Origin: Nostoc punctiforme PCC 73102
GTDB taxonomy: Bacteria > Cyanobacteriota > Cyanobacteriia > Cyanobacteriales > Nostocaceae
Assembly: GCF_000020025.1 (NCBI RefSeq)
Contig: NC_010628.1
Coordinates: 3,720,001 to 3,752,000, forward strand
Reading direction: 5' to 3'
Length of the DNA stretch: 32,000 bases
Below the pieces are notes generated by a model, which had not been told where the DNA came from, ran no database searches, and saw only the letters and a program-made list of their open reading frames with translations. The translations under genes were made by a program, and so were the position numbers. Positions within the stretch are counted from its first letter, which is position 1. Every line of letters starts with the position of its first letter. This document shows, one piece after another, positions 11,101 through 32,000 of the stretch.

Positions 11101-14100
11101 CAAATCTCAGCTCGATGAGAAGGAGTAGATAAACTGGTGGCTTCTTTGCCAAGATAGCGCAGCAAGCCATAGCCAATCCCCTTGTGAGGAATCTGACGCA
11201 ACTGCTCTTTAATTGACTTAATAACATCCCCTTGATTATCTGTAACTCCCAGTTCTAACAACACCGGGAAAAGTGTTGTAAACCAACCGATAGTACGTGA
11301 TAAATCTACATCTGCAAAAATGTCTTCCCGCCCATGACCTTCCAACTCTAACAGCAGGGAGTTCGCACCAGCCCATTTACTCACAACCTGCACTAAAGCG
11401 GTTAACAATATATCATTAATTTGAGTGTTGTAAGCTTTTGGTACTTCTTGTAATAATGCTTGGGTTTGTGTATCATTCAATGATACTGATACAGTGGCAG
11501 CAGATGCAGCAGTGTTAGCACCTTTTTCAAAGTCCACTGGTAAACGCAACACTGGTGTTGTAGATTGTTTTTGCCAACAAGCTAATTCTTCTGATAAAGC
11601 TTCTGATTGTGCATATTCACTCAGTTGTTGCGCCCAATATTGAAAAGATGTTGTTTTGGCGGGTAGCTGAATCGTTTCACCACGGCTAAGTTGCTGATAA
11701 CCTGTCTGTAAGTCATCTAACAAAATCCGCCAAGAAACTCCATCAACCACTAAGTGGTGAATAATAATTAGTAATCGGCTTGGTTGGTCAATTCCCAGAG
11801 ACAATAAGGCAACGCGGATAATCGGTCCTGTTGATAGATTTAAGCTAGCCTGTAGTTGAGAAGCAGTAGCTTCAATAGCATTTTTTTGTTCTGTCTGTGT
11901 AACTGTAGATAAATCTATCTGCAAGAAAGGTACTATCTTATCCGGGACAGTGTGAGTTTGTTTCCAAGATTCACCTGGAATATAACGTAAACGCAATGTA
12001 TCGTGGTGTAGCAACAATTGCTGCAAAACGCGCTTTAAAATTTCTGGGTCTAAGTCTGATGGTACTGTCAACAGAACTGATTGGTTAAAATGGTGCGGCT
12101 CAGGCTGATTTTGCTCAAAAAACCAGTGTTGAATTGGTGTTAATGGCACTGTTCCTGTGACTAAACCTTGTTCTGCCTGGATGTTTTTAGTTGTGCCCGC
12201 TACTGCTGCTAACTCGGCAATGGTTTGATGCCCAAATAATTGTTTGGGACTTAAATTCAGTCCCGCCTGATTAGCTCTGGCAATAATTTGCAAACTGAGG
12301 ATGGAATCGCCGCCGAGTTCAAAGAAGTTATCGTGAATGCCTATTTGTTTGACTCCTAAAACCTCTGCCCAAATATCGACTAATATCTTTTCTGTAGGAG
12401 TTCTGGGGGCAATAAAGTTAACTTCTAGTTCAGGACGTGAATCAGGAGCAGGTAAGGCACGACGGTCTACTTTGCCGTTAGGCGTGAGAGGCAAGGCTTC
12501 TAAGAACACAAACGCTGAAGGCAACATATACTCAGGTAGTTTTGCCTTGAGGAATTGCCGTAAGTCGCTAATAGTTGGTGTTTGTTCTTGATTGCATACT
12601 AAATAAGCAACTAAGCGTTTACTTCGACTTACCTCGGCTGCGCTCGGCACGAGTCGCTCAGTACAAGTATCGCCGGGAATATCTTCTCTTGCTATGACTA
12701 CAGTTCCTTGCACATTTGGGTATTGGCTCAGTACTGCCTCTATCTCGCCCAATTCGATGCGGAAGCCGCGAATTTTTACTTGGTTGTCGATGCGTCCCAA
12801 ATACTCAATATTTCCATCAGCTGAATAACGCGCTAAATCCCCAGTTTTATACAGACGACTCCCGGATTTATCAAAGGGATTAGTAATAAATTTTTCTTGG
12901 GTCAAATCAGGTCGATTCAGGTAGCCTCGTGCTAAACCAACACCACCGATGTGCAACTCACCAGGTACACCAATTGGCACTGGTTGCAGATATTGGTCTA
13001 GTAAATAGGTTTGCACATTCTGTAGCGATCGCCCAATGAATATTTTTGACCCAAAACTAGACAAATTATACACTGTTGCTTCAACAGTGGTTTCTGTAGG
13101 CCCGTAAGCGTTGATTAATTGTGGGTATTGGCCAACATACTCCTGCCAAATTTTTAACTGTGCTGGTAGCGCTTGCTCTCCACCAATAATTACCAGGCGA
13201 ATAGAATTGGGTAATCTTAAATTGCTGTTAGCTAATTCTGAAGTTAGTTGATGCCAGTATGCTGTCGGCAAATCTAAAACTGTGAGTTCCCAATCTTGGC
13301 ATCTTTGCACAAATGTACTGATGGAAGTTAGCATTTCATCGGTGCGTAGCACTAGCGTTGCACCACAACTCAGACAGGGATAAATTTCTTCGGCGGCGAC
13401 ATCAAAACTAATCGATGCAAATTGTAAAATGCGTTGACAATAATTGATGCCATATTCAATTATTGCTGCTTGGATAAAATTTACTAAGGAATAATGTTGA
13501 ATCATTACTCCTTTGGGTTGACCTGTAGAACCTGATGTATAAATTACATAAGCAAGATTTGCTGATGTTACTTGGCTGATACAATTATCATTACTCAAAT
13601 GAGCATAGGCTTGCCAATCGCTATCTAAACTAACCACCTGCGCCCCATGTTCTGGTAGTCCCTTAACTAATTGCTGTTGCGTCACCAATACAGATACTTG
13701 GGAATCTGTCAACATATAAGCTAGTCGCTCTTGAGGATAATCAGGGTCAAGAGGTATATAAGCCCCACCCGCTTTGAGAATCCCCAACATTCCCACCACC
13801 ATGTCTAAGGAACGTTGCACACAAATACCAACTAACACCTCTGGGCCTACACCTAGACTTTGTAGGTAGTGTCCTAGTTGATTAGCTCGATTATTCAATT
13901 CGCGGTAGCTAAGTTTTTGGTCTGCAAACACTACTGCTACTGCATCTGGAGTCAGTTTTACTTGATTCTCAAATAACTCATGAATGCAAAGGTTTTCTGG
14001 ATAGTCTTTTTGCGTATCATTCCATTCCAACAATAATTTTTGCTCTTCTGCTGTTGTGAGCAAGGGCAATTGAGAAACGGGCATTTTTGGATAAGAAACA

Positions 14101-18600: not shown

Positions 18601-20248
18601 CCATATTTACATATTGGGAACCTTGACCGGGAAACAAAAAAGTTACTGGTCTTTGGGTTTTTTCTTGGAAAGTTGTTAAGTACTGGCTCGGCTCTGATGC
18701 TTTGAGTCCAATTATTGCTGACTCTAAATTGCGACACACTAACATCCGCCGATGATTATAAGTTCTGCGACCTACTTGCAGGGTATGTACAACATCAGCT
18801 AAGTTAATATCTGGATGTTGTTGCAAATATTCAGCCAAATTTACGGTCATTGTTTCCAAAGCTGAATCAGTTTTGGCCGAAACAATCAACAGATGATATT
18901 TTCTCCCCTGCTCCTCTGCTCCCCTATCCTCCTGCTCTAACAAAGGGCTTTCTTCGAGAATCAGATGGGCGTTGGTTCCGCCAATTCCAAAGGAGCTAAC
19001 ACCCGACCGCCGGGGAGTATTAACAGAATCCCACTTTGATAACTTAGTATTAACGTAAAAGGGACTGTTGGCAAAGTCAATTTTAGAATTAGGTTGCTCA
19101 AAGTTCAAACTAGCTGGAATCACTTTGTGTTGCAGTGCCAGAGTCGTTTTAATCAACCCCGCAACCCCCGCAGCTGCATCTAAATGTCCCATATTTGTTT
19201 TGAGGGAACCAATCGCACAGAAACCTTTTTTAGCAGTACTAGTACGGAAAGCCTGAGTTAAAGCTTCTAGTTCAATAGGGTCGCCCAAAGGTGTAGCTGT
19301 GCCATGTGCTTCAATGTAGGTGATTGTCTCAGCTGCAATCTCAGATGTAGCTTGAGCCGCAAGAATCACATTTGCTTGCCCTTCTACTCCCGGAGCAGTG
19401 TAACCAATTTTTTGCGCTCCATCATTATTGATTGCCGAGCCTTTAATTACAGCATAAATGCGATCGCCATCTTTGATCGCATTTTCTAAACGTTTGAGTA
19501 CCACAATCCCCAAACCATTACCGCCAACTGCTCCTTTAGCTTTGGCATCAAAAGTCCGACAATGACCATCAACGGAAACAATGCCCCCTTCTTGATAAAT
19601 ATAGCCACTCATTTGTGGTAATCGAATAGAAACACCACCAGCCAGAGCCATTTCACAATCGCCACTTAACAACCCTTGACAAGCTAAGTGAACTGCCACT
19701 AAAGAGGAAGAGCAAGCAGTTTGAACAGTAATACTTGCACCAGAAAGGTCTAATTTATATGAAACAAGGGTGCTGAGATAATCACCATTGGCAATTAAAA
19801 TCGGTGAAACTCCCACAGCTTCGATTAAGTCACTGTTTGGATAGATGTTATCTAGTAAATAGTCATTTTTACCGACGGCAGCGTAAACACCAATAGGACT
19901 TTTATAAGTTTGTGGATTGTAGGCAGCGTTTTCTAAAGCTTCATCAGCACACTCTAAAAACAGACGGTGTTGGGGGTTTAAGATTTCTGCTTCTCTGGGG
20001 GTATAGCCAAAGAAAGCTGCGTCAAACATCTCAATGTCATTTAATATCGCCCCAGCTTTGACATAGTTGGATTGACTTAATAAAGCTGGTTCAATCCCCG
20101 CAGCCAGCAATTCTTCATCGGAGAAAAATTTTACAGATTCGACACCATCTTGCAGATTACGCCAAAATTCTTCAATATTTTTAGCTCCGGGAAACCGACC
20201 GGCTAGGCCAATAATGGCTACTTCTAAACCTGTTTTTTCACTACTCAT
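15632..20248 (-). CDS. Type I modular polyketide synthase, one module (KS-AT-KR-ACP), 1538 aa
   Basis: Contains the KS triad motifs TACSSSL, EAHGTATPLGDPIE and NMGHLDAAAG. The AT has GHSIGE and HAFHS. The KR has TGGLGKIS and YSAANNFLD. The carrier has LGGNSL. The ATG at 20246-20248 overlaps the upstream stop. Confidence 0.97.
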   Translation of the reverse strand: MSSEKTGLEVAIIGLAGRFPGAKNIEEFWRNLQDGVESVKFFSDEELLAAGIEPALLSQSNYVKAGAILNDIEMFDAAFFGYTPREAEILNPQHRLFLECADEALENAAYNPQTYKSPIGVYAAVGKNDYLLDNIYPNSDLIEAVGVSPILIANGDYLSTLVSYKLDLSGASITVQTACSSSLVAVHLACQGLLSGDCEMALAGGVSIRLPQMSGYIYQEGGIVSVDGHCRTFDAKAKGAVGGNGLGIVVLKRLENAIKDGDRIYAVIKGSAINNDGAQKIGYTAPGVEGQANVILAAQATSEIAAETITYIEAHGTATPLGDPIELEALTQAFRTSTAKKGFCAIGSLKTNMGHLDAAAGVAGLIKTTLALQHKVIPASLNFEQPNSKIDFANSPFYVNTKLSKWDSVNTPRRSGVSSFGIGGTNAHLILEESPLLEQEDRGAEEQGRKYHLLIVSAKTDSALETMTVNLAEYLQQHPDINLADVVHTLQVGRRTYNHRRMLVCRNLESAIIGLKASEPSQYLTTFQEKTQRPVTFLFPGQGSQYVNMARELYEVEPTFQTEFDHCAQLLLINFGLDLHRLLYPEASVQETAQAQLQQTHLTQPALFVIEYALAKLWMSWGIKPQAMIGHSIGEYVAACLAGVFSLEDGLTLVITRAKLMQELPKGAMLAVPLPESEIKPLLNEQLSLAAINAPSQCVVSGLADAIATLQNQLTKKGVDCRLLHTSHAFHSTMMEPICAALTEQIAEIQLHSPQIPYISNVTGTWITPSVATDPNYWTKHLRQPVLFNQGVEELLQESDRVFLEVGPGRTLSTFIQQHSDKNTGITALASLRHPRDESSDVAFLQNTLGQLWLAGVEVDWSGLYIHERRQRLALPTYPFERQRYWLDAPNSAEIPSSPQLLPNKKLDISKWLYIPSWKRTVSPSRRHSSPGCTLVFSDDCGLGLGIVRQLELEGETVITLKVGSEFHQISERLYSLNPKNHQDYDTLLQELHRQGLQPQKIIHLWSVTENYTPELEIAEFDKAQETGFYSLLFLAQTLAKHHVIDELQITVVSNNVQQVTGVDIVCPAKATILGPVKVIPQEYPNITCRNIDIIIPKSSQDKLVEQIVAELTCDNLDKVIAYRGYHRLVQTFEPVQWDESVVGTPRLREKGVYLITGGLGKISLLLAEHLAKTVQGNLILIGRSPFPAKDSWEQWLVNHDHTDSISQKIQKLIEIESFGGKVLIINADVSNQQQMQAAIDLAKEKYGRVNGVIHAVAIADSFHAIEQTSYQECLQQFQPKIHGLLVLEKIFQNQKLDFCLLLSSLSSILGGLGFVAYSAANNFLDIFAHKYNPNNSIPWISINWDAWQFDSEPKITGNLAELALNPQEGIKIFQYIFSQPDVNQWVVSTGNLQARIDQWIQLKILGNRKDLKSASSITHHARPNLRNAYIAPSNEIEKCLVNIWQDLLGIEPIGIEDNFFELGGNSLTAIQIISRLREIYLIDLPVNDFFETPKIISLTETIFQAQIANADSEILAQALADLAKLSDEDVQKLLAAE
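15735..15955 (-). other. Acyl carrier domain (PCP-like signature)
   Basis: FFELGGNSLTAIQIISRL; Ser codon at 15848-15850. An acidic C-terminal tail follows (SDEDVQKLLAAE). Confidence 0.88.
16210..17535 (-). other. Ketoreductase (KR) domain with N-terminal structural subdomain
   Basis: The Rossmann motif YLITGGLGKIS is at about 16766-16792. The catalytic Tyr in YSAANNFLD has its codon at 16295-16297. No DH (HxxxGxxxxP), ER or methyltransferase motif occurs between the AT and KR. I could not assign the stereochemical type: the LDD position reads ADS and there is no A-type Trp. Confidence 0.85.
16470..16477. repeat. HIP1 palindrome GCGATCGC
   Basis: Exact 8-mer read in the sequence. Confidence 0.95.
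17760..18646 (-). other. Acyltransferase (AT) domain, malonyl-CoA type
   Basis: Contains FLFPGQGSQY and GHSIGE (Ser codon 18353-18355). The HAFH motif at 18056-18067 is the malonyl-specific signature, as opposed to YASH for methylmalonyl. Confidence 0.85.
18126..18133. repeat. HIP1 palindrome GCGATCGC
   Basis: Exact 8-mer read in the sequence. Confidence 0.95.
18953..20233 (-). other. Ketosynthase (KS) domain
   Basis: The active-site Cys codon is at 19712-19714 (TACSSSL, residue 179). Both His motifs are present, and the domain ends at GGTNAHLILEE. Confidence 0.92.
19460..19467. repeat. HIP1 palindrome GCGATCGC
   Basis: Exact 8-mer read in the sequence. Confidence 0.95.
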
Positions 20249-23200
20249 TGTTTGCCCCCTTTGATGAACGTGCTAACCGTTGTTTGAGACGGTTTCTCCC
20301 GGCTTTGATATCTGTAATTTGATTATTTTTTTTCTCTATATCGGATGCAGAGTCAGTTTTTTCGGAACTTAAATATTTGGCAAGAGTTGAAATAGTGGGA
20401 TATTTAAACATTTCCAGTAAGGAAATATCTTGGTTGAGAAACTCCTGCAACTTTTGAGTTAGCTTCACCATCAGTAAGGAGTGACCACCAAGGTCAAAAA
20501 AATTGTCATCTATCCCTACTTTTTCTAATTGCAACACCTCTTGCCAAATGTTAGCGATCGCTTGTTCAATTTTGCTTCGTGGCGCTACATAACTGGCAGC
20601 AAATTGCGCTGATAAATCAGGTGCAGGTAAGGAGCGACGGTCTATTTTGCCATTTGGTGTCAGAGGAAATTGCTCTAAGAACACAAAGGCCGCAGGAATC
20701 ATGTAATTAGGTAACTGTCTCTGCAAGAAACTGCGTAAATCACTAATACTATGTGTCTGATTTAGTTCAAATATTATATAAGCTACCAAACGGCGTTGGC
20801 AAAGCCCACCGCAGGCATCATCGCTTATATCCTCTCTCGCCAACACTACTACTTCTCGAATGGCAGGATGCTGTAACAGTGCAGTTTCTATTTCTCCCAA
20901 CTCAATGCGGAAGCCCCGAATTTTGACTTGATTATCAATCCGTGCTAAATATTCGATATTTCCATCAGGTAAATAACGCCCTAAATCGCCAGTTTTATAC
21001 AACTTTGAATTGTTAAAGGGATTGGCAATAAATTTCTCTTGTGTCAACTCTAAGCGATTGAGATAACCTTGTGCTAATCCATCACCACCTATATATAATT
21101 CACCAGGAACACCAATAGGTACTGGCTGTAAGTTTTGATCTAATAAATAGATTTGAGTATTAGAAATTGGCTGACCAATAGGGATAGTTGTAGCTGTTGC
21201 AGGTACATCTTCGATTAAAAACCAAGAAGAAAAAGTGGTGCTTTCTGTCGGGCCATAAACATGCAGTAAATGCTGTGGCGCACCATTTTGCAATACCTCT
21301 TTTACCCATCTGGGATCAACAGCCTCGCCACCAAATAAGAGATATCGCAGGGTGTTAAATGCCTGGGGTACAAAACTAGCTAACTGATTAAATAAGGCTG
21401 TGGTTAGGAATAAAACACTAATTTCCTGTTCACGGATATATGCAGCAAATTCTTGGGGTGAGAGGGCTATATTGTGCGTCACACCTACTAGCCTTGCACC
21501 ATGCAAGAGTGCGCCCCATATTTCAAAGGTAGCAGCATCGAAAGACGCATTTGCAGCTTGGGCAATACAATCGTTAGCATCTAACTGTATATAGTTGGTG
21601 TTAAACACTAGGCGATTAACTGCCCGATGGGGAACAGCTACCCCTTTGGGTTTGCCTGTAGAACCGGAAGTATAGATAACATAAGCTAGTTTGTCAGCTG
21701 TAACTTCGCTATGCAGATTTGCCGTACTTTCTCGGTTAATAATATCCCAACCAGTATCTAAACACACCACTGGCTGACCGTATTCTGGCAGCTTTTCAAC
21801 TAATCGCTGTTGCGTCAGCAGCACAGGCACTTGTGAATCTGCCAACATCAAACTTAAGCGTTCTTGGGGATAATCCGGGTCAAGTGGCACATACGCACCA
21901 CCTGCTTTGAGAATCCCCAGCAGTCCCACTAGCATTTCTAAAGAACGTTCGACAAAAATGCCCACCAGCACTTCTGTACCAACACCTAAAGTTCTCAAGT
22001 AATGAGCTAATTGATTAGCTCGACTATTTAACTCTTGGTAAGTAATTTGCTGGCTTCCAAACACTGCCGCTACTAGATCCGGGTTACGTTCCGCCTGGGC
22101 TGTAAACAACTCATGAATGCACTGATTTTGCGGATATTCTGTTTGAGTATTATTCCATTCATTTAATAACTGGTGTTGCTCATTCACTGTGAGCAGAGGT
22201 AGTTGGGAAACTGGTTGTTCTGGATTTGTTACAATACTCTCCAGTAAAGTTTGGAAATGCCCAATCATCCGAGCGATCGTCAATGTATCAAATAAATCAG
22301 TGTTATATTCCCACGCTCCTACTAGTCCCTGGTCAGTGTTCTCAAAAGCTAAAGTCAAATCAAACTTGGCTGTTAAGCTTTCTGTTGTTAATGAACTCAA
22401 AGTTAAACCAGGCAATTCTATATCCGATGTCGGAGTATTCTGAAACACAAACATGACTTGGAATAGCGGTGTATGGCTTAAGTCTCGTTCTGGCTGTAAT
22501 GCCTCTACTAGCAGTTCAAACGGCAAGTCTTGATGAGTATGAGCTTCTAGAGACACTTCCCGAACTCGCTCTAATAATTGCCGGAAACTGGGATTACCGG
22601 AAACATCTGTGCGAAAAACTAAAGTGTTAACGAAGAAACCGATTAATCCTTCTATTTCACTGTAATTCCGATTGGCGATCGCAGAACCGACTAAAATATC
22701 TGTCTGTCCTGTATAGCGGTGAAGTAAGGTATCAAAAGCTGCCAACAATGTCATAAACAGGGTGACACCTTCTTGCCGACTTAATAAGCTTAGTGCTTGG
22801 CTTAACTCCTCAGAAAGTGAGAAAGATTGAGTCGTCCCTCGAAAGGTTTGCACTGCTGGTCTGGGCCGGTCAGTAGGTAGTTCTAATAAAGCTGGTGCGC
22901 CTGCTAGTTGTTCTCGCCAGTAATTAATTTGAGACTCTTTAACCTCACCTTGCAACCACTGTCTTTGCCACACTGCAAAGTCAGCGTATTGGATAGCGAG
23001 TTCTGGTAAGGATGAGAGATGACCTTGAGAAAAAGCGGTGTAAAGTTCTGCTACCTCTTGGACAAAAACACCCATTGACCAACCATCAGAGACAATGTGG
23101 TGCATACAGAACAGCAATATGTTTTCTGTCTCTGATATCGCTAGTAAAGTAGTCCTAATTAACGATTCATTTACTAAGTCAAAGGGCTGCTGGGCTGCTA

Positions 23201-26200
23201 CTGTTGCCAATTGTTGAATTTCAATTTCTCGTTCATCTGCTGGCAAATCCTGTAAGTCTATCACTGTCATTGTCCAAGAACTTACAGGGCGGATAATTTG
23301 CACCGCCTCCCCTGCTTGAGTGATGAAGTTGGTACGTAAAGCTTCATGACGACGGATGATTTCACTGAGGCTTTGTTCTAGCGCTGCAACATTCAGTTGA
23401 CCTTGAAAACTTACTGCGCCTGGGATGTTATATGCAGCACTATTTGGATCTAACTGGTTGAGGAACCATAAACGCTGTTGAGCAAATGAAAGGGGGATGT
23501 TTTCATTTCTAGCTACAGGTTGCAGAGGTGGTATTAATAATTCTGATGAGTTTCGTTGATATTGCTGAATATATTCAGCTAAATTGGCGATCGTCGCAGC
23601 TTCAAATAGACTACGTAAAGGTAACTCTATTTTAAAGGTAGTTCTGATTCGGGAAACAAGTTGAGTTGCCAATAACGAATGTCCGCCCAATTCAAAAAAG
23701 TTATCGTAAACACCTATTTGTTCTACTCGCAGCACATCAGCCCAAATAGGTGCTAATATTTCTTCGATGGGTGTGCGTGGGGCAACAAAATTAACTTCTA
23801 ATTCCCGAAGTGTTTCTGGCAGTGGTAAGGCGCGACGGTCTACTTTGCCATTAGGAGTTAATGGGAGAGTTTCTAAGAATACAAAAGCCGAAGGAATCAT
23901 GTACTCAGGCAACTTTGAACCCAGAAATTGCCGGAGTTCATTTATTGTTGGTGTTGGTTCTTGATTGAGTGCAAGGTAAGCGACTAAGCATTTATCACCT
24001 GGAGTATCTTCACGGGCAATTACTGTTACCTGTAATATTGCTGGGTGTTGGCTCAGTATTGCCTCTATCTCTCCCAACTCAATACGGAAGCCGCGAATTT
24101 TAACTTGGTGATCTATCCGTCCTAAATACTCGATATTCCCATCAGGTAAATAACGCGCTAAATCCCCAGTTTTATATAATTTTGAATTTTGAATTTTGAA
24201 TTTTGAATTATTAAAAGGGTTGGGGATGAATTTTTCTTGTGTCAAATCAGGGCGGTTAAGATAGCCTTGAGCTACACCAGCACCACCGATATGCAACTCA
24301 CCTGGAACACCAATCGGCACAGGTTGGAGATAACTATCAAGGATATAAGCTTGAGTATTAGGAATGGGACGACCAATAGGGGGTTTATCGGAGCGCTCGC
24401 CATTGCCACATTCTGCTACAGTTGCACAGACAGTAGTTTCCGTTGGTCCATAAGCGTTGAAGAAACGTCGCCCAACTGACCATTGCTTAATCAAGTCAGG
24501 AGCGCAAGCTTCACCCGCCACAATGATGTTCTGTAATGCCGGAAGTTCTGCTTGTGGTAGAACTGCTAACGCCGATGGTGGCAAGGTAATGTGGGTAATC
24601 CCATAGTCGCGTAATAATTCAATTAATTCCAAACCAGGTAAAAGAGACTCTTTAGTTCCTAAATACAGCCTTGCACCTGAACCCAATGCCATCACCACTT
24701 CCCAAATTGATGCGTCAAAGCTAAAAGAAGCAAATTGCAGAATCCGACTTGAGGGCAGTAAATCAAACAAATCAATCTGGGCTTGAGCTAAGTTGCATAA
24801 CCCGGAATGTTTCACCATCACACCCTTGGGTTTGCCTGTTGAGCCGGAGGTGTAAATCACATTTACTAAATCCGAGTCTTTCACCCCACTAATTGGATTT
24901 TCTTGGCTGTGTTGGATAATTTGTTCCCAACTTTCATCAATGACTACCAGTGTGGCTTGATGCTCAGGTAATCTTGCAACTAATCGGTGTTGTGTCAGCA
25001 GCAGCGACACTTGAGAATCTGACAAGATATGAGATATTCGTTCTTGGGGATACTCCGGGTCAATCGGTACATAAGCACCACCCGCTTTCAGAATCCCTAA
25101 TAATCCTACTAGCATTTCTAAAGAACGTTCGACACACAGACCAACTAACACATCAACTCTTACACCTAGAGTCCTTAAATAATGGGCTAAGTGGTTCGCT
25201 TGTTGATTTAGTTCTCGGTAAGTGAGTTGTTGATTTTCAAACACCAATGCCACTGCATCGGGGGTGCGTTCCACCTGCATTTCAAAAAACTGATGAATGC
25301 AGATGTCTTGGAGATAGTTTCTTTGCGTATCATTCCATTCTTCTAGCAGCTGGTATTGCTCTTGTGTAGATAAGCCGGAACATAACTCGTAGCTTTCCAG
25401 TGGCTCCTTCACCATTGCATCCAGGGTTTTTACATAATAGCTACTAATAGCTTTTATTTGTTCTCTACACAACTCAGAGGCATCGTAAGCAAAACCAACT
25501 TCTAATTCAGACGAGCCGGGATTCAGCTTAAAGTTAACTGCCAAAGTAAAGTTTGTTTCTTCAACAGACTTTAATCCTAGTAACTCTACATTATTATTGA
25601 GTTCTATGACTGTTTGATATACATGGAAATGCACGAAATTAAAGATAATCTCAAACAAAGGTTGACCACCCAGAATCCTCTGTAATTGCCCTAGAGGATA
25701 TCGGCGAAAAGGTAGCAGCTCCACCTCTGCATCAAATACTTGTCTTATCAAGTCTACCCAAGTGCCTCCAGACAGGTTTAGACGAAATGGCAAGCTATTG
25801 AGGAAGAGTCCCAAAACTTGCTCACTATCAGTCTGTTCTGGTCTTCCATTGGCGACTAAACCTGTTAATACATCAACTTGGTTGCTAATTATACTTAAAA
25901 CTCGCACATGTGCAGCCAATAGCACACTTTTGAGGGGAACACCTATAAATTGAGCTAGCTTTTGCAAGCCGTTGTAAAGATCCGCAGATAAAGGCACATC
26001 TTGTGTGCCAACTTGCCGGACTTTGGCTTTTTGTTGAGAAGAATACCAACGAGGCACCATAGTTATAGTGCATTCTTTCAACTTTTCTGTCCAATAGTAT
26101 TCATGCTCCTTCGAGCCTAAAGCTTGTCGTTCCAAAGCCACAAAATTGCGGAAGGAACTTGAGGGGGATGGCAAAAGCGGTTGGGCTTTTTGGTTTACAA

Positions 26201-29200
26201 GAGAGAAATAATTCCCAAACAACTCATTCAGCATTGAAGCGACACTCCAGCCATCGAGAATAGCATGGTGTTCAGTGAAGCTAAATTGAAACTCCTCTGG
26301 GCTGTAGCAATGAATTTGAAACCGCAACAAGGGTGATTGTTTCCAGTCAAACTTACGATTTTTTTCCGCTTCAAACCAAGCATCTATTTTCTGTTGTTGC
26401 TCATCAACAGAGAGATGACTTAAATCTTTCATTTGTAAGGGAATGGGAACTTGTCGATGAACTAACTGAAGAGGTTCACTGAAGTTGCTTAAATCAATAG
26501 AAGTCCGCAATATGGGATGACGAGCCACAAGCTGCTCTACAGCAGTCTGGAATTTCTCTAGGTTAAAATGAGCTTGAAGATGGAAACTGCTGACGTTGTG
26601 ATAAACAGCAGTATCTTCGTTAAGTTCGCTGTGGAAAAGCATCCCCATTTGTAGCATGGTTAGGGGATAGGCATCTTCTACCTCATCAGGTAGTTTCTGG
26701 CGGTCTGTTTCAGAAATCAGACTGAAAGGTTTTTCTGATTCAATAATGACTCTACTAACTTCTACAGATTGGAGTTCCTGCACCAGATTAGAAATTGTCT
26801 GATGCACAAACAATTGTTGTAGTGAGAAGCTTAAACCTTGCTTCTGGGACTGGGACTGTACCTGTATACTTCTGATGGAGTCTCCACCTAAAGCAAAGAA
26901 GTTATCATTAATGCCTACCTGTTCGAGTCCGAGAACTTGCGCCCAAATGTCAGTTAGTAGTTTTTCCGTGGGTGTACGTGGCGCAACAAAAGCTTTTTCT
27001 TCTGTTCTTGCTGTATCAGGTACAGGTAAGGCACGACGGTCTACTTTACCGTTAGATGTTAGTGGTAGGCTGTCCAAGAAGACAAAAGCCGCAGGTATCA
27101 TATACTCAGGCAGCTTTGAGTCCAGGAATTGCCGCAGGTCGTTAACAGTGAGTACTTGTGCCTGATGGATTACTAAGTAAGCAACTAAACGTTTACTTTG
27201 ACTTCGCTCAGTACAAGTATCTCCTGGGGTATCAACTCTGGCGATAACTACGCTTGCTTGCACTTGGGGATGTTGAGTGAGTGCTGCTTCTATTTCTCCC
27301 AATTCGATGCGGAAGCCACGAATCTTTACTTGGTTATCAATGCGTCCCAGATATTCTAAGTCGCCATTTTCTAAATATCTGGCTAAGTCTCCAGTTTTGT
27401 ACAGACGGGCATTGGGGTCATCACTGAAGGGATTGGCAACAAATACCTGAGATGTCAATTCTACACGGTTGAGATAACCACGAGCTAACGAAGCACCGCC
27501 GACATACATTTCTCCAGGAACACCTATCGGTAATAATTGTTTGGCTTTATCCAGGACATAAACCTGTAAGTCAGGGATGGGGCAACCAATGACACTGCCA
27601 GTATTGCTGCTCAAATCTGCGATAGTGATGGGGCGATAGGTGACATGAACGGTAGTTTCTGTGATTCCGTACATATTCACCAACTGCGGATACTTATCTC
27701 CATGTCTCTCAAACCAAGGTTTTAAGCTTTGTATTTCTAACGCTTCGCCACCAAAGATTACCCATCTTAGAGCTAAGTTTGCTGGTGTGTCGATGAGTTG
27801 TTCTGCTTGAATCAATTGGCGAAAGGCGGAGGGTGTTTGATTTAAGACTGTGACTTTTTGTTTATCTAATAATTTTAAGAAGTCTGCGGGGGAACGACTC
27901 ACCCAGTAAGGTACTACTACTAATCGCCCGCCTTTGATTAATGCTCCCCAAATTTCCCAGACTGAAAAGTCAAAGGCGAAGGAGTGAAATAGTGTCCATA
28001 CATCTTGTTGATTGAAGTAAAACCATTCTTCTGTGGCAGTAAATAGTCGCACGACATTGGCGTGATTAATTAATACGCCTTTGGGTTTTCCTGTGGAGCC
28101 TGATGTGTAAATTATGTAAGCTAGATTGGCAGAGGTGGTGACAATTTGGGGGTTTTGTACACTTTGTTGGGCAATAATTTCCCAGTCGGCATCAATACAT
28201 AAAACTTGTGCTTGATGGGCGGGGAGTTTGGATAGTAGTTGCTGTTGGGTTATTAGTACTTTGACTTGGGAATCTTCTAGGCTAAAGCTGAGTCGTTCTT
28301 GGGGATAATTGGGGTCAAGGGGTACATACGCTCCTCCGGCTTTGAGAATTCCTAAGATTCCTATTAGCATTTCTATGGAACGCTCTACGCAGATGCCGAC
28401 TAATATTTCTGCTCCCACTCCCAGATTTCTTAAGTGGTGTGCTAGTTGATTGGCTCGATTATTTAATTCTTGGTAGGTGAGTTGCTCGTCTTCATAGACA
28501 ATTGCGATCGCATCTGGGCTACACTCTACTTGCAATTCAAATAACTCATGGATACACTGCTCTTGAAAATAGGTAGTTTGCGTGTTGTTCCACTCCGACA
28601 GCAGTTGATTTTCTTCGGTTTTTGTGAGTAAAGGTAATTCGTTTAGGTGTTGATGGGGGTTAGCTGCTAAACTTTCCAGTAATATCTGGAAATGCCCCAG
28701 CATCCGGCTGATTGTAGCTGCATCAAAGCGATCGCTATCATAGCTGATGCCTACTGATAATTGTCTACCAGGAATAACTGCCAAATTTAGAGGATAATTT
28801 GTGCGTTCAATGCTCCGAACATTAGAAATATTGATGCCGTTGTTCTGTTCAGAAGCATCAATTGGATAATTTTCAAATACTACAATGCTCTCAAATAGAG
28901 GCATTCCCTTTGGTATTTCAGTCCAACTTTGAATTTCTACTAGTTGGTTATATGAGTGTTGCTCACGCTCTACTTGCTGTGCCTGTAATTCTTTGAGCCA
29001 AGGCAATACTTCTATCTCTGCTGGTACAGAAACCCGGATTGGCAAGGTATTGATAAACAATCCCACCATCGATTCTATCCCGACAATATCTGGTGGACGA
29101 CCGGAGACAGTAGCGCCAAAAATCACATCTACTTCGCCACTGTAACGTGAAAGTAAAATGGCCCATGCTCCTTGGACAAGATTATTCAGTGTTAACTGAT

Positions 29201-29969
29201 GTTGTCGTGTAAAAGCCTGGAGAGCTATTGTTGCTGGCTCTGTTAACTGAGCGTGTTGTGTAGCATAGCTTGAAGGCTGCTCTTGATTCTTGATCAGTGG
29301 TTTATCAACTATTAGAGGAGTTGTGGCAGTCAGTCCCTTGAGTTGTAGTTGCCAAAACCTTTTGGCTTGGGAAATGTCCTGTTTTTGACACCAGTCGATG
29401 TAGTCTTCATAGGGACGAGGTTTGTCTAGGTTTAAATTATTACCCTCATTAAAGGCATCATAGAAGGCAAAGATTTCTTTAATAATTGTTGGTATAGACC
29501 AGCCATCGAGTAGCAAGTGATGATGGCTCCAAACAAAATTATAGGTGTAATCTGCTACCCGAATTAGGGTGCAACGCATTAGTGGAGCTTGGTTAAGTTC
29601 AAAACCTTTGTCTCTATCCGCTTGTAAGAAATTTTCTAATTCTTCTTGCTGTTCGATAGAAGATAGCGATCGCCAGTCATAGTTAGTCCAAGGTAAATTT
29701 ACTATCTGGCGAACTACTTGCAGAGGCTTATTCCGGTTTTCCCAAAGAAACAAGGTACGCAAAACTGGATGGCGTTCTATGACTCGTTGCCAAGCTTGCT
29801 CAAACGCTGAGATATTTAGTTGTCCATTCAAAGAGCAGACTAATTGTTGAAAATATACTCCTGTCTCTGGGGCATAAAGAGTATGAAAAAGCATACCCTG
29901 CTGCATAGGAGAAAGGGGATAAATAGATTCAATGTTTTTGCTATTACTTTTTTTATCAACAACTGCCAT
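20241..29969 (-). CDS. Non-ribosomal peptide synthetase, three modules (C-A-T / C-A-T / C-A-T), 3242 aa
   Basis: This is an uninterrupted ORF with three HHxxxDG motifs, three SGSTGKPKG cores and three carrier motifs. The start is ATG at 29967-29969, with AGGAG 9 nt upstream. The stop is TAG at 20241-20243. Confidence 0.97.
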   Translation of the reverse strand: MAVVDKKSNSKNIESIYPLSPMQQGMLFHTLYAPETGVYFQQLVCSLNGQLNISAFEQAWQRVIERHPVLRTLFLWENRNKPLQVVRQIVNLPWTNYDWRSLSSIEQQEELENFLQADRDKGFELNQAPLMRCTLIRVADYTYNFVWSHHHLLLDGWSIPTIIKEIFAFYDAFNEGNNLNLDKPRPYEDYIDWCQKQDISQAKRFWQLQLKGLTATTPLIVDKPLIKNQEQPSSYATQHAQLTEPATIALQAFTRQHQLTLNNLVQGAWAILLSRYSGEVDVIFGATVSGRPPDIVGIESMVGLFINTLPIRVSVPAEIEVLPWLKELQAQQVEREQHSYNQLVEIQSWTEIPKGMPLFESIVVFENYPIDASEQNNGINISNVRSIERTNYPLNLAVIPGRQLSVGISYDSDRFDAATISRMLGHFQILLESLAANPHQHLNELPLLTKTEENQLLSEWNNTQTTYFQEQCIHELFELQVECSPDAIAIVYEDEQLTYQELNNRANQLAHHLRNLGVGAEILVGICVERSIEMLIGILGILKAGGAYVPLDPNYPQERLSFSLEDSQVKVLITQQQLLSKLPAHQAQVLCIDADWEIIAQQSVQNPQIVTTSANLAYIIYTSGSTGKPKGVLINHANVVRLFTATEEWFYFNQQDVWTLFHSFAFDFSVWEIWGALIKGGRLVVVPYWVSRSPADFLKLLDKQKVTVLNQTPSAFRQLIQAEQLIDTPANLALRWVIFGGEALEIQSLKPWFERHGDKYPQLVNMYGITETTVHVTYRPITIADLSSNTGSVIGCPIPDLQVYVLDKAKQLLPIGVPGEMYVGGASLARGYLNRVELTSQVFVANPFSDDPNARLYKTGDLARYLENGDLEYLGRIDNQVKIRGFRIELGEIEAALTQHPQVQASVVIARVDTPGDTCTERSQSKRLVAYLVIHQAQVLTVNDLRQFLDSKLPEYMIPAAFVFLDSLPLTSNGKVDRRALPVPDTARTEEKAFVAPRTPTEKLLTDIWAQVLGLEQVGINDNFFALGGDSIRSIQVQSQSQKQGLSFSLQQLFVHQTISNLVQELQSVEVSRVIIESEKPFSLISETDRQKLPDEVEDAYPLTMLQMGMLFHSELNEDTAVYHNVSSFHLQAHFNLEKFQTAVEQLVARHPILRTSIDLSNFSEPLQLVHRQVPIPLQMKDLSHLSVDEQQQKIDAWFEAEKNRKFDWKQSPLLRFQIHCYSPEEFQFSFTEHHAILDGWSVASMLNELFGNYFSLVNQKAQPLLPSPSSSFRNFVALERQALGSKEHEYYWTEKLKECTITMVPRWYSSQQKAKVRQVGTQDVPLSADLYNGLQKLAQFIGVPLKSVLLAAHVRVLSIISNQVDVLTGLVANGRPEQTDSEQVLGLFLNSLPFRLNLSGGTWVDLIRQVFDAEVELLPFRRYPLGQLQRILGGQPLFEIIFNFVHFHVYQTVIELNNNVELLGLKSVEETNFTLAVNFKLNPGSSELEVGFAYDASELCREQIKAISSYYVKTLDAMVKEPLESYELCSGLSTQEQYQLLEEWNDTQRNYLQDICIHQFFEMQVERTPDAVALVFENQQLTYRELNQQANHLAHYLRTLGVRVDVLVGLCVERSLEMLVGLLGILKAGGAYVPIDPEYPQERISHILSDSQVSLLLTQHRLVARLPEHQATLVVIDESWEQIIQHSQENPISGVKDSDLVNVIYTSGSTGKPKGVMVKHSGLCNLAQAQIDLFDLLPSSRILQFASFSFDASIWEVVMALGSGARLYLGTKESLLPGLELIELLRDYGITHITLPPSALAVLPQAELPALQNIIVAGEACAPDLIKQWSVGRRFFNAYGPTETTVCATVAECGNGERSDKPPIGRPIPNTQAYILDSYLQPVPIGVPGELHIGGAGVAQGYLNRPDLTQEKFIPNPFNNSKFKIQNSKLYKTGDLARYLPDGNIEYLGRIDHQVKIRGFRIELGEIEAILSQHPAILQVTVIAREDTPGDKCLVAYLALNQEPTPTINELRQFLGSKLPEYMIPSAFVFLETLPLTPNGKVDRRALPLPETLRELEVNFVAPRTPIEEILAPIWADVLRVEQIGVYDNFFELGGHSLLATQLVSRIRTTFKIELPLRSLFEAATIANLAEYIQQYQRNSSELLIPPLQPVARNENIPLSFAQQRLWFLNQLDPNSAAYNIPGAVSFQGQLNVAALEQSLSEIIRRHEALRTNFITQAGEAVQIIRPVSSWTMTVIDLQDLPADEREIEIQQLATVAAQQPFDLVNESLIRTTLLAISETENILLFCMHHIVSDGWSMGVFVQEVAELYTAFSQGHLSSLPELAIQYADFAVWQRQWLQGEVKESQINYWREQLAGAPALLELPTDRPRPAVQTFRGTTQSFSLSEELSQALSLLSRQEGVTLFMTLLAAFDTLLHRYTGQTDILVGSAIANRNYSEIEGLIGFFVNTLVFRTDVSGNPSFRQLLERVREVSLEAHTHQDLPFELLVEALQPERDLSHTPLFQVMFVFQNTPTSDIELPGLTLSSLTTESLTAKFDLTLAFENTDQGLVGAWEYNTDLFDTLTIARMIGHFQTLLESIVTNPEQPVSQLPLLTVNEQHQLLNEWNNTQTEYPQNQCIHELFTAQAERNPDLVAAVFGSQQITYQELNSRANQLAHYLRTLGVGTEVLVGIFVERSLEMLVGLLGILKAGGAYVPLDPDYPQERLSLMLADSQVPVLLTQQRLVEKLPEYGQPVVCLDTGWDIINRESTANLHSEVTADKLAYVIYTSGSTGKPKGVAVPHRAVNRLVFNTNYIQLDANDCIAQAANASFDAATFEIWGALLHGARLVGVTHNIALSPQEFAAYIREQEISVLFLTTALFNQLASFVPQAFNTLRYLLFGGEAVDPRWVKEVLQNGAPQHLLHVYGPTESTTFSSWFLIEDVPATATTIPIGQPISNTQIYLLDQNLQPVPIGVPGELYIGGDGLAQGYLNRLELTQEKFIANPFNNSKLYKTGDLGRYLPDGNIEYLARIDNQVKIRGFRIELGEIETALLQHPAIREVVVLAREDISDDACGGLCQRRLVAYIIFELNQTHSISDLRSFLQRQLPNYMIPAAFVFLEQFPLTPNGKIDRRSLPAPDLSAQFAASYVAPRSKIEQAIANIWQEVLQLEKVGIDDNFFDLGGHSLLMVKLTQKLQEFLNQDISLLEMFKYPTISTLAKYLSSEKTDSASDIEKKNNQITDIKAGRNRLKQRLARSSKGANNE
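20255..20259 (-). promoter_or_regulatory. Shine-Dalgarno-like GGGGG for the PKS gene, embedded in the 3' end of the upstream NRPS gene
   Basis: The minus strand reads AAAGGGGGCAAACA-ATG, with the G-run 6 nt upstream of the ATG at 20248. Confidence 0.4.
20370..20588 (-). other. Peptidyl carrier domain T3 (hands off to the PKS KS)
   Basis: FFDLGGHSLLMVKLTQKL; Ser codon at 20478-20480. A basic 40-aa C-terminal tail follows (KAGRNRLKQRLARSSK). Confidence 0.88.
20554..20561. repeat. HIP1 palindrome GCGATCGC
   Basis: Exact 8-mer read in the sequence. Confidence 0.95.
20635..22125 (-). other. Adenylation domain A3, branched-chain aliphatic code (Ile/Val/Leu)
   Basis: The hand-read code is D-A-F-F-L-G-V-T-F-K (FDAATFE, VLFLTTA, LLFGGEA, HVYGPTESTTF; Lys codon 20646-20648). 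It carries a 24-nt in-frame insertion at about 20793-20816. Confidence 0.75.
20793..20816 (-). repeat. 24-nt in-frame insertion of a different sequence family (adds ACGGLCQR)
   Basis: The coding strand reads GATGAT|GCCTGCGGTGGGCTTTGCCAACGC|CGTTTGGTAGCT. The protein reads REDISDD-ACGGLCQR-RLVAY, against RED-x-PGD-KRLVAY in uninterrupted copies. The exact edges are ambiguous by a few nt. Confidence 0.6.
22190..23500 (-). other. Condensation domain C3, LCL-type
   Basis: Contains LSFAQQRLWFLNQLDP and CMHHIVSDGWS (HH codons 23097-23102). Confidence 0.88.
22675..22682. repeat. HIP1 palindrome GCGATCGC
   Basis: Exact 8-mer read in the sequence. Confidence 0.95.
23590..23790 (-). other. Peptidyl carrier domain T2
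   Basis: FFELGGHSLLATQLVSRI; Ser codon at 23676-23678. Confidence 0.9.
23830..25300 (-). other. Adenylation domain A2, Phe-like code
   Basis: The hand-read code is D-A-W-T-I-A-A-V-C-K (FDASIWE, ITLPPS, IIVAGEA, NAYGPTETTVC; Lys codon 23844-23846). This matches 9 of 10 positions of the GrsA Phe code DAWTIAAICK. It contains the heptamer repeat at 24181-24208. Confidence 0.8.
24181..24208. repeat. Perfect tandem heptanucleotide repeat, 4 x TTTGAAT (coding strand ATTCAAA), in frame inside an A domain
   Basis: The four units are 24181-87, 24188-94, 24195-201 and 24202-08. They encode NNSKFKIQNSKLYKTGD. The paralogous position at 21005-21011 has a single unit and encodes NNSKLYKTGD. Confidence 0.95.
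25380..26672 (-). other. Condensation-family domain C2, divergent subtype (unresolved)
   Basis: Contains YPLTMLQMGMLFHSELNEDTAVYHN and FTEHHAILDGWS (HH codons 26265-26270). It has neither the LSFAQQRLWFL start of the two LCL copies nor the PLSPMQxGMLFH...YF(E/Q)Q start of the three DCL copies in this window. Confidence 0.75.
26790..26985 (-). other. Peptidyl carrier domain T1 with epimerase-partner-type core (GGDSI) but no E domain downstream
   Basis: FFALGGDSIRSIQVQSQSQKQGLSFSLQQLFVHQTI; Ser codon at 26877-26879. Confidence 0.85.
27195..27218 (-). repeat. 24-nt dispersed mini-repeat inserted in frame (adds TCTERSQS)
   Basis: The coding strand reads GAT|ACTTGTACTGAGCGAAGTCAAAGT|AAA. The paralogous Thr A domain has GAT|AAA uninterrupted at 8040/8041. 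The arms ACTTGTACT and AGTCAAAGT can pair imperfectly. Confidence 0.8.
28504..28511. repeat. HIP1 palindrome GCGATCGC
   Basis: Exact 8-mer, at the same paralogous position (PDAIAIVYE) as 9316-9323. Confidence 0.95.
28728..28735. repeat. HIP1 palindrome GCGATCGC
   Basis: Exact 8-mer read in the sequence. Confidence 0.95.
29666..29673. repeat. HIP1 palindrome GCGATCGC
   Basis: Exact 8-mer read in the sequence. Confidence 0.95.
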
Positions 29970-30043: not shown

Positions 30044-32000
30044 TTAATTAATGTCTGCCAATATATCGTCAATATCTTCTTGACTTAACCCAGCTTTGGG
30101 AAAGTCTGAAGGTGTAAATCCGCCAACATTGGGTAACTGGCAATGTTGAATTAAAGTTCGTAAAGCTTCCATAAACTGTCTAGCTAAACGCTCAACTGTA
30201 CTGCGTTGATGAACTTTCTCGCTATACTCCCAATTTATTTGTAGTTCGCCATTCATTACCAATCCGCTTACCTGTAATAAATAATTGCGATATTCTTGGA
30301 GACTATGTTCTGTTCCTCCAGATTCTTGAGCAAATTCCCAAGTAGCGATCGCTGATGATTCTCGGTTAAACTGCCCTAAGTAGTTGAAACTCACTTCTGC
30401 TTTGGGCAAATGCTCTAGTTGCTCTGCATCTTGGCTCAGATAGCGTAAGACTCCATAACCAATACCTCGCATCGGCAAGCGGCGTAATTGCTCTTTGACT
30501 AATTTCAGCGCCTCGCCTGGATTTGTCTCATCTCCTAATTTTAAGTGAACAGGGAACAAAGTTGTAAACCAGCCTACAGTCCGTGACAAATCCACGTCTT
30601 CAAATAGTTCTTCTCGTCCATGTCCTTCAAGGTCAACTAATAAGGAGTCAGAACCAGTCCACTGGGTAAAGCTCTGCATTAAGGCGGTTAGCAGCACATC
30701 ATTAATTTGGGTGTTGTAAACAGCAGGTACTTCCTGTAACAGTGTATCCGTCTCTTCACTACTCAAAGACAATGACACATAAGCAGATGAAGCTATGGTG
30801 TTGGTTTCTTTGGTTGGGGGATAATCTACTGGTAAAGGAGTAATGTTTGTGGCTGATTCAGCTAACCAGTAGTTGATTTCGCTACTGAGTGCGGCTGATT
30901 GAGCATATTTAGTAAGTTGTAAAGACCAATATTGAAAGGATGTAGTCTTAGGAGGTAATTGAATCACCTCAGCGCGAATCAACTGCTGGTAGCCAGTTTG
31001 CAAATCATCCAATAAAATTCGCCAAGAAACACCATCCACCGCCAAGTGATGAATCACCAGCAACAACCGACTCGGCTGATTATCACCAAGAGTAAATAAT
31101 ACTGCTCGCATCAACGGGCCAGTGGATAAACTCAGACTCGCTTGAAATTCACTACCAGCATTCTCCAAAGCAGCTGGTTGTTCCTGTGGCGAGAGAGTGG
31201 ATAAATCAACCACACTCAAAGCCACTGTTTCTTCAAAAGCCGCGTTAAATTGTTTCCAGATAACAGCATCCAGCACAAAGCGCAAGCGTAAAGCATCATG
31301 GTGTAGAAGTAACTGCTGCAAAACCCGTCTTAAAAGTTCCACGTCAAGGTCTGATGGAACTGATAGCAGCACTGATTGGTTGTAATGATGGGGTTGGGGC
31401 TGATTTTGAGCAAAGAACCAATGTTGAATCGGCGTTAACGGCACAATTCCTGTAACTAAATCTTGTTGAGCTTGGATTTTTTTAGTTGTGCCTACCACTT
31501 TTGCTAACTGAGCAATTGTCTGATGCTCAAACAACTGCTTAGGACTCAGTTGCAATCCGGCTTGATTTGCACGAGCAATAATTTGCAGACTAAGGATAGA
31601 ATCACCACCCAATTCAAAAAAGTTATCATGAATTCCTACCTGCTGCGATCGCAGAACCTCAGCCCAAATCAGTGCTAATTTTTGTTCAATAGATGTAGTC
31701 GCCGCTACAAAACTCACTTCTAGTTCCGAGCGCGACTCTGGTATAGGTAAGGCACGACGGTCGATTTTACCGTTGGGTGTCATAGGCAAAGCTGCCAAGA
31801 ACACAAAAGCCGCAGGTATCATATAATCAGGCAGCTTTGAGGTGAGGAATTGCCGCAGTTCTGTCACTGTGGGGGTTTGCTCTTGTTTAAGTACAAGATA
31901 AGCCACTAAGCGTTTGACACCAGGGTCATCTTCCCTAGCAATAACTACTGCTTGGAATACAGCCGGATTTTCGTTGAGAACAGTTTCTATCTCTCCCAAC
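30044..32000 (-). CDS. Non-ribosomal peptide synthetase, 3' part only (..A-T-E); the 5' end lies beyond the right window edge
   Basis: The reading frame is open to nt 32000 and begins mid-motif (E)LGEIE of A8. The leading M in the ORF track is an artefact of a TTG codon. The stop is TAA at 30044-30046. Confidence 0.95.
   Translation of the reverse strand, partial: LGEIETVLNENPAVFQAVVIAREDDPGVKRLVAYLVLKQEQTPTVTELRQFLTSKLPDYMIPAAFVFLAALPMTPNGKIDRRALPIPESRSELEVSFVAATTSIEQKLALIWAEVLRSQQVGIHDNFFELGGDSILSLQIIARANQAGLQLSPKQLFEHQTIAQLAKVVGTTKKIQAQQDLVTGIVPLTPIQHWFFAQNQPQPHHYNQSVLLSVPSDLDVELLRRVLQQLLLHHDALRLRFVLDAVIWKQFNAAFEETVALSVVDLSTLSPQEQPAALENAGSEFQASLSLSTGPLMRAVLFTLGDNQPSRLLLVIHHLAVDGVSWRILLDDLQTGYQQLIRAEVIQLPPKTTSFQYWSLQLTKYAQSAALSSEINYWLAESATNITPLPVDYPPTKETNTIASSAYVSLSLSSEETDTLLQEVPAVYNTQINDVLLTALMQSFTQWTGSDSLLVDLEGHGREELFEDVDLSRTVGWFTTLFPVHLKLGDETNPGEALKLVKEQLRRLPMRGIGYGVLRYLSQDAEQLEHLPKAEVSFNYLGQFNRESSAIATWEFAQESGGTEHSLQEYRNYLLQVSGLVMNGELQINWEYSEKVHQRSTVERLARQFMEALRTLIQHCQLPNVGGFTPSDFPKAGLSQEDIDDILADIN
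30125..31465 (-). other. Epimerization domain
   Basis: Contains PLTPIQHWFFAQ, HHLAVDGVSWRILLDD (HH codons 31046-31051), EGHGREE and FNYLGQFN. Confidence 0.9.
30345..30352. repeat. HIP1 palindrome GCGATCGC
   Basis: Exact 8-mer read in the sequence. Confidence 0.95.
31510..31700 (-). other. Peptidyl carrier domain (epimerase-partner type)
   Basis: FFELGGDSILSLQIIARANQAGL; Ser codon at 31598-31600. Confidence 0.9.
31645..31652. repeat. HIP1 palindrome GCGATCGC
   Basis: Exact 8-mer read in the sequence. Confidence 0.95.
31745..32000 (-). other. C-terminal subdomain of an adenylation domain (specificity pocket off-window)
   Basis: Contains LGEIE, REDDPGVKRLVAYLV, LPDYMIPAAFV and PNGKIDRRALP. 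There is no insertion at the PG-x-KRLVAY junction. Confidence 0.85.

Follow-up and report, generated by a model that had tools for sequence, protein, structure and literature searches.

Two closely related adenylation (A) domains encoded within a 32,000-nt stretch of Nostoc punctiforme PCC 73102 (NC_010628.1, positions 3,720,001 to 3,752,000; referred to as the window) differ by exactly 24 nt, which raises the question of where these additional nucleotides come from and how a nonribosomal peptide synthetase (NRPS) gene tolerates them. The filled copy is the first A domain of open reading frame (ORF) D, termed D-A1 (27036-28481, from the first motif to motif A10), and the empty copy is the second A domain of ORF B, termed B-A2 (7872-9293), both on the minus strand. 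In agreement with a first-pass annotation of this DNA, the 24 extra nucleotides, designated E1, are located at 27195-27218 on the minus strand: their reverse complement is ACTTGTACTGAGCGAAGTCAAAGT, read in frame as TCTERSQS, and ORF D reads ARVDTPGD-TCTERSQS-KRLVAY. The annotated empty site of B-A2 is also real, as ARVDNPGD is directly followed by KRLVAY at the same codon boundary; its junction, which had been placed at 8040/8041, was 10 nt off and lies at 8030/8031, between the TTT Lys codon (8028-8030) and the ATC Asp codon (8031-8033). We assume, with a probability of about 0.9, that the 24 nt represent one copy of a dispersed Nostoc repeat family, the small dispersed repeats (SDRs), which was inserted into this NRPS gene.

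D-A1 and B-A2 share 85.0% amino-acid identity over the A domain, compared with 50-55% between D-A1 and four other A domains. Their description as close threonine-activating paralogs, originally based on a comparison by eye, is in line with 88.3% nucleotide identity over the 240 nt compared and with the specificity code DFWNIGMVHK found in both, which we take to be the Thr code (Stachelhaus code). The insert is located between the core motifs A8 (GRIDNQVKIRGFRIELGEIE) and A9 (LPEYMIP), and four of the seven A domains of the window have no insert at this site: in addition to B-A2 (8030-8031, GGTGAT/AAACGC, corresponding to PGD/KR) these are B-A3 (3431-3432, GGTGAT/AAACGC), D-A2 (23993-23994, GGTGAT/AAATGC) and the partial A domain of ORF E (31915-31916, GGTGTC/AAACGC), all on the minus strand. 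Of 108 homologous A domains, 80 have a spacing of 60 amino acids from A8 to A9 and 104 one of 58-63 amino acids; in D-A1 it is 68 amino acids. Alignment with solved A domains, both of LgrA included, shows an exact eight-residue gap opposite TCTERSQS. To judge from these comparisons, the short loop is the ancestral state, and the modal short spacing, the short solved structures and the empty nearest paralog together argue for an insertion into D-A1 and not for a deletion.

The position of the insert, in the loop between A8 and A9 of the C-terminal subdomain, could also be mapped onto an AlphaFold model of the D-A1 A domain (mean predicted local distance difference test score, pLDDT, of 86.9), in which the insert corresponds to residues 463-470 and the strands comprise residues 448-456 and 472-479. 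Internally, the pLDDT falls below 50 at only two places, residues 462-469, which coincide with the insert, and residues 532-538 after motif A10. According to this model, the insert is predicted to be the lengthened, disordered tip of a beta-hairpin outside the motifs A8, A9 and A10. When the A domain and a 77-amino-acid loop segment served as queries, only proteins of query-like length were returned, with no multimodular orthologues and no insert-bearing loop fragments among them.

The 24 nt are not confined to this gene. A pattern with 17 fixed and seven free positions was used to scan one genome per prokaryotic species. This pattern scan yielded at least 120 genome stretches with at least 131 copies, with in-frame copies in a large number of unrelated genes, so that the 24-mer is clearly dispersed, and the interpretation as a mobile mini-repeat, which could not have stood if the sequence occurred nowhere else, is supported. 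Two loci among the matches listed look like chance matches, whereas the remaining 118 share the family consensus ACTTGTACTGAGCG-N-AG-Y-CGAAGT, from which a subfamily ACTTGTGCCGAGCG-N-AG-Y-CGAGGT can be distinguished; about 80 of the 118 genuine loci among the matches listed belong to Nostoc or other Nostocales. E1 in D-A1 agrees with the consensus at 23 of 24 positions, the sole mismatch being an A for G at position 20. Since a profile made from 128 copies found elsewhere matches 27195-27218 with E = 9.6e-8 in the window, this agreement is not a matter of chance. A local tandem duplication was rejected as source of the 24 nt, as there is no template nearby and the sequence belongs to the dispersed family. 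A full-text literature search with fragments of the 24-mer returned primer sequences only.

The commonest landing context of the copies is formed by heptamer arrays: 33 of 128 listed copies sit exactly between two units of such an array (joined flanks with at least 80% periodicity), and many more are found in imperfect arrays. Flanking heptamers of E1 copies include attacga (attacga/E1/attacga), atccaaa, attgggc and attggtc. Furthermore, 11 of 127 listed copies were found inside a second copy of the family, in eight cases at 14/15, in two at 10/11 and in one at 20/21, and the nesting point is always immediately 5' of an A, a G/A step in the consensus. The same base follows the element in general, with an A directly 3' of 123 of the 128 copies. 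Comparison of filled with empty sites revealed no target duplication apart from a possible single A. These comparisons also set the boundaries of the unit, which is a discrete 24 nt, and nested and rearranged forms differ from each other by 24-nt steps.

A nested form is present in the window itself. The A domain B-A1, with 55% identity to D-A1, carries an insert of 48 nt (12621-12668, minus strand) at the codon boundary used in D-A1, which translates as TCTERLVPSAAEVSRS. It splits into two copies, neither of which has a mismatch to the degenerate consensus: the 5' part of an outer E1 copy (positions 1-14, ACTTGTACTGAGCG; 12655-12668) and its 3' part (positions 15-24, AAGTCGAAGT; 12621-12630) enclose, between positions 14 and 15, an inner 24-nt copy of the GCC/GGT subfamily, ACTCGTGCCGAGCGCAGCCGAGGT (12631-12654). 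The string SAAEVSRS, which the first-pass annotation had linked to repeat-derived stretches of Nostoc proteins, is indeed encoded in the window, at this second filled site (amino acids 943-958 of ORF B).

In-frame insertion into protein-coding genes is not restricted to the window either. Among the matches listed, 45 of 131 copies lie within open frames of at least 150 amino acids, in both orientations and in five of the six possible reading frames; the remaining frame contains TGA. Sense-strand translations are TCTERSRS and LVLSEVE, and antisense translations are TS(T/A)(S/T/P/A)LSTS, LRLRSVQ and FD(C/Y)AQYK. Proteins with in-frame copies include pyruvate:ferredoxin oxidoreductase, a phosphoenolpyruvate-utilising enzyme, a GGDEF-EAL protein, topoisomerase and PcrB; the first-pass annotation had likewise, and correctly, linked the string TERS to repeats in Nostoc proteins, and TCTERSRS recurs in unrelated proteins. 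Three further copies are located in Nostoc NRPS genes. At L012 1513-1536, E1 occupies the same nucleotide position as in D-A1 (ggtgat/E1/aaacgc) and a 72%-identical relative (P0126) is empty, so that D-A1, B-A1 and L012 share one insertion point. At L069 7071-7094, the 24-mer is inverted and sits two codons further downstream within this hairpin (TSAPLSTS), and at L060 4128-4151 it lies in the loop following the hairpin.

Taken as a sequence of events, an SDR-type copy would have entered the NRPS gene at the codon boundary GAT/AAA. Family members would generally enter DNA directly 5' of an A, would leave no target duplication and, inside older copies, would prefer the GCG/NAG centre. The insert in D-A1 would then have persisted because its length is a multiple of three, its frame contains no stop and only the hairpin tip is lengthened, outside A8, A9 and A10; for enzyme function it would be neutral or nearly so.

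Such elements are not new to this organism. Elhai, Kato, Cousins, Lindblad and Costa reportedly described in 2008 (Genome Res) small dispersed repeats, SDR1-SDR8, of 21-27 nt in Nostoc punctiforme. These are said to be embedded in heptamer repeats, SDR1 and SDR4 to be nested within their own family, and SDR4-SDR6 to have a conserved secondary structure with compensatory changes. The SDRs were reportedly confined essentially to one cyanobacterial subgroup, and an RNA intermediate is said to have been proposed. The 24-mer resembles them in its length within the 21-27 nt range, in its host genome, in its dispersal, in its embedding in heptamers, in self-nesting and in varying presence and absence. 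The last point is illustrated by D-A1 versus B-A2, by L012 versus P0126, by PcrB of Dokdonia sinensis versus its nearest relatives and by D-A1 itself, which differs by 24 nt between two genomes. Unlike the SDRs, the 24-mer also has copies outside Nostocaceae and cyanobacteria, and the fold favoured by covariation involves only its 3' 18 nt. The SDR work of 2008 is cited in PMC5861425, PMC4390886 and PMC3116915, and PMC5861425 paraphrases a narrower distribution than found here. The insert in D-A1 is thus an example of an already known kind (2008, same genome), textbook-clean but ordinary.

Some points weigh against this assignment. The identity with one of the numbered SDR1-SDR8 is putative and follows from the properties reported for SDRs. 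The family counts come from one genome per species. The family reaches beyond Nostocaceae, contrary to what was reported, so that the published SDR description is at least incomplete. Finally, two modules of one cluster share the same insertion point, and exchange between them could account for this; we return to this point below.

The 24-mer can also be compared with other groups of repeats. Ogata and co-workers reportedly described in 2000 the Rickettsia palindromic elements (RPEs), selfish repeats that insert into coding sequences without shifting the frame. The RPEs are similar in being dispersed repeats that survive in surface loops of essential genes with the frame kept and with filled and empty homologues coexisting; they differ by a length of about 100-150 bp, a palindromic structure and their restriction to Rickettsia, and the 24-nt element has no sequence relationship to them. 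Repetitive extragenic palindromic sequences (REP/REPIN), mobilised by REP-associated tyrosine transposases (RAYT; PMC3116915, PMC3733652), are also short, very abundant, hairpin-capable, non-coding and without long target duplication, but REPs lie outside genes, are mostly arranged in inverted pairs and bear a GTAG or CGTC tag. Membership was rejected, as the 24-mer consensus contains no GTAG or CGTC tag, about one third of the copies lie inside ORFs and copies are single or nested and not inverted pairs. Miniature inverted-repeat transposable elements (MITEs) such as Nezha (cited in PMC3733652) are non-autonomous repeats of cyanobacterial genomes too, but they measure 70-300 bp and have terminal inverted repeats and target-site duplications, whereas the 24-mer has neither; with a unit of 24 nt and no duplication beyond the possible single A at filled sites, it is not a MITE. 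The short tandemly repeated repetitive (STRR) heptamers and HIP1 (HIP1: PMC5861425) are further repeat types of heterocystous cyanobacteria, and both occur in the window. Heptamer arrays expand when 7-nt units slip and HIP1 is a palindrome of 8 nt, whereas the 24-mer is discrete and appears whole at unrelated sites.

A second genome bears on the question whether D-A1 and B-A1 were filled once or twice. The JGI assembly 3300055348 contains the same cluster on an 8.33-Mb contig, with 98% nucleotide identity and one orthologue protein 97% identical. The nest in B-A1 is identical to that of the window. The D-A1 site (L151 5782-5829) is filled with 48 nt, ACTTGTACTGAGCTTAGTCGAAGT followed by AGCACAGCCGAGGTAAGTCGAAGT; since the second genome is also filled there, E1 at D-A1 is older than the split of the two genomes. 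The 48 nt could not be separated into two clean copies and consist of a single copy joined to the 3' half of a nest. After the split, the D-A1 site was altered by exactly one 24-nt step, and the extra 24 nt could have arisen by further nesting followed by partial loss or by recombination or ectopic exchange with another copy.

One has to consider that gene conversion or unequal exchange between the similar C-terminal subdomains of the modules brought the copy into D-A1, with B-A1 or a further filled A domain as donor. Apart from the shared insertion point, this possibility draws on the extra 24 nt of the second genome (AGCACAGCCGAGGTAAGTCGAAGT), 23 of which are shared with the 3' 24 nt of the B-A1 nest. 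It also draws on the 300 nt around the D-A1 repeat, where 19 substitutions separate the two 98%-identical genomes, compared with 0-8 in most other bins, suggesting a recombination patch or a recent rearrangement at the repeat. The flanks point in the other direction: the 180 nt to the left of the D-A1 insert are closer to the empty B-A2 (82.8% identity) than to B-A1 (75.6%), five of the 15 nt beside the junction differ between D-A1 and B-A1, and the flanks of these two domains are no more similar than expected. Moreover, the D-A1 copy is without the inner element found in B-A1, and the unrelated NRPS at L012 is filled at the same site. A shared site can also be understood without exchange, because the preference for an A as next base together with the need to keep the frame leaves GAT/AAA as the only usable codon boundary in the loop, which would account for repeated insertion at one position, L012 included. 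We therefore regard transfer between modules as rather unlikely and favour independent insertions into D-A1 and B-A1, filtered by tolerance.

A different question is whether the eight residues were retained as a selected addition, for instance as a docking, regulatory or redox-sensitive loop. The insert is kept in two genomes, inserts are found at this hairpin in three of the seven A domains of the window, and the insert brings in a cysteine. However, TCTERSRS and the versions from other frames also occur in unrelated proteins and in non-coding DNA, the loop is predicted to be disordered, and the two genomes do not have the same sequence at the site despite their 98% identity, which argues against a constraint on the peptide. 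A functional role of the residues is hence improbable in our opinion.

The element might alternatively act in RNA, either as a structured motif of the mRNA or as a segment excised from the transcript, leaving the protein unaltered. The imperfect inverted arms pointed out by the first-pass annotation do exist (ACTT..ACT / AGT..AAGT), but the hairpin formed by them is weak and without covariation support. The minimum-energy hairpin of E1 has -3.1 kcal/mol and 64 of 200 shuffled sequences fold as well; hairpins of the element range overall from -3.1 to -4.2 kcal/mol and none is better than shuffles. Covariation was examined in 54 distinct, related family members (L001-L152 and the window), most of them picked with the pattern that fixes 17 positions: the inverted-arm hairpin pairs 81% of the cells, which is below the shuffled controls, whereas an alternative helix of positions 7-9 with 22-24 and 12 with 19 pairs 94.4%, a value reached in none of 500 shuffles, and AU, GU, CG and GC all occur at the pair 7-24. 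The visible inverted arms are thus probably not the relevant structure, and the preference for the alternative helix is suggestive only. The hexamer at the 5' end differs from one related family to another (CGTTCG, GTGGTC, GCTTGT), whereas the 18-nt core ACTGAGCG-N-AG-Y-CGAAGT is kept. Its centre GCG-N-AG-Y, the site of most self-nesting, presumably resembles the very stable d(GCGNAGC) mini-hairpin.

Besides this covariation, a length divisible by three and five open frames out of six would suit an element that acts at the RNA level. On the other hand, Rfam matched no family around the D-A1 insert site and the fold is weak in energy, both orientations relative to genes imply that no single RNA strand is consistently transcribed, annotated database proteins include the peptide (by prediction only), and the covariation could have arisen just as well from a DNA hairpin or from the descent of subfamilies. 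An RNA function of this kind seems very improbable to us. The last alternative, an ancestrally long loop from which B-A2 lost 24 nt by deletion, accounts for the bare length difference and nothing more, and it is refuted by a sequence that belongs to a dispersed family in intergenic heptamer arrays and unrelated genes, by the short spacing of most A domains and of the solved structures and by the four empty domains of the window, so that its probability is negligible.

In contrast to the distribution reported for SDRs, copies with the full consensus or one deviation were found in isolates of Bacteroidota (Thalassobellus citreus, Chryseobacterium sp., Aestuariivivens marinum, Flavivirga sp., Dokdonia sinensis and Crocinitomix catalasitica) and in metagenome-assembled genomes of Chloroflexota, Saccharibacteria, Ignavibacteria and Gammaproteobacteria, as well as in cyanobacteria beyond Nostocales. 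Non-cyanobacterial copies are located at L006 5413-5436, L016 1304-1327, L018 3599-3622, L062 1573-1596, L105 3782-3805 and L107 5335-5358, in L021 and L035 and at other loci. Less than one match to the full consensus would be expected in the entire collection, so that the agreement at the free positions of the pattern cannot be due to chance. In-frame hosts outside cyanobacteria are a topoisomerase, a tyrosine integrase, PcrB and a DUF6428 protein; in PcrB of Dokdonia sinensis the copy adds 8 residues that are missing from 78-80%-identical relatives, in a loop that varies in length. In addition, fifteen phage contigs in IMG/VR contain the element. About ten of them are related (54-59% G+C) and have the 24-mer at one orthologous spot (L134 3843-3866; L130, L131, L133, L135-L138, L140), where it exactly fills the gap between the TAA stop of a 66-amino-acid ORF and the ATG of a 534-amino-acid ORF; this implies that the two ORFs originally overlapped in TAATG.

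Provided that these copies arose by insertion at their present sites, it is possible, although doubtful, that a portable trans-acting machinery, perhaps phage- or plasmid-borne, writes the 24-mer into genomes of several phyla. Such a machinery would insert 5' of an A and would prefer the GCG/NAG centre of older copies. The plasmid collection contained no close match to the NRPS cluster and only four weak matches to the 24-mer. The copies across phyla and in phages matter more than the insert in D-A1, since they would open a comparative route to the insertion mechanism: if the assumption is true, a comparison across phyla of genomes that contain the element with genomes that lack it could identify the insertion machinery.

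For NRPS research, the window and the related loci mark the A8-A9 beta-hairpin of A domains as a naturally permissive site that accepts 7, 8 and 16 additional residues and could be used when megasynthases are tagged or engineered. Such inserts have to be expected when cyanobacterial megasynthases are annotated or their specificities are predicted, and identical 24-mers in different modules may supply homology for module exchange.

Small repeat-derived in-frame additions are present in four of the six complete A domains of the window. The third insert at the A8-A9 hairpin is a different one of 21 nt, GCCTGCGGTGGGCTTTGCCAA (ACGGLCQ), in the same hairpin loop of D-A3 (20796-20816, minus strand). 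The only relatives found are L083 3981-4001, the head of a 21-nt tandem array in Nostoc, and L148 from a metagenome, which looks related among nine matches of a metagenome scan, most of which represent chance in high-G+C DNA. The 21-nt insert may therefore be a member of another small repeat family, although the sequence evidence for this is weak. D-A2 contains a tandem array of the heptamer AATTCAA (coding strand; 24178-24209, minus strand) with 4.6 units and 100% matches, which adds NSKFKIQ just upstream of motif A7. The array is present in the 98%-identical second genome, and the same heptamer borders E1 copies in other Nostoc genomes.

The window contains three NRPS ORFs with seven A domains or parts thereof, adjoined by a KS-AT-KR-ACP polyketide synthase and an MFS transporter. 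ORF D (20241-29969, minus strand) encodes an NRPS of 3242 amino acids with three C-A-T modules and ORF B (2118-15494, minus strand) an NRPS of 4458 amino acids, and the three large ORFs of the window show full identity to ACC81525, ACC81526 and ACC81527 from Nostoc punctiforme PCC 73102. The HIP1 octamer GCGATCGC, whose abundance is a usual cyanobacterial signature, has 15 sites in the 32 kb (e.g., 3546-3553, 19460-19467 and 28504-28511), compared with 0.09 expected.

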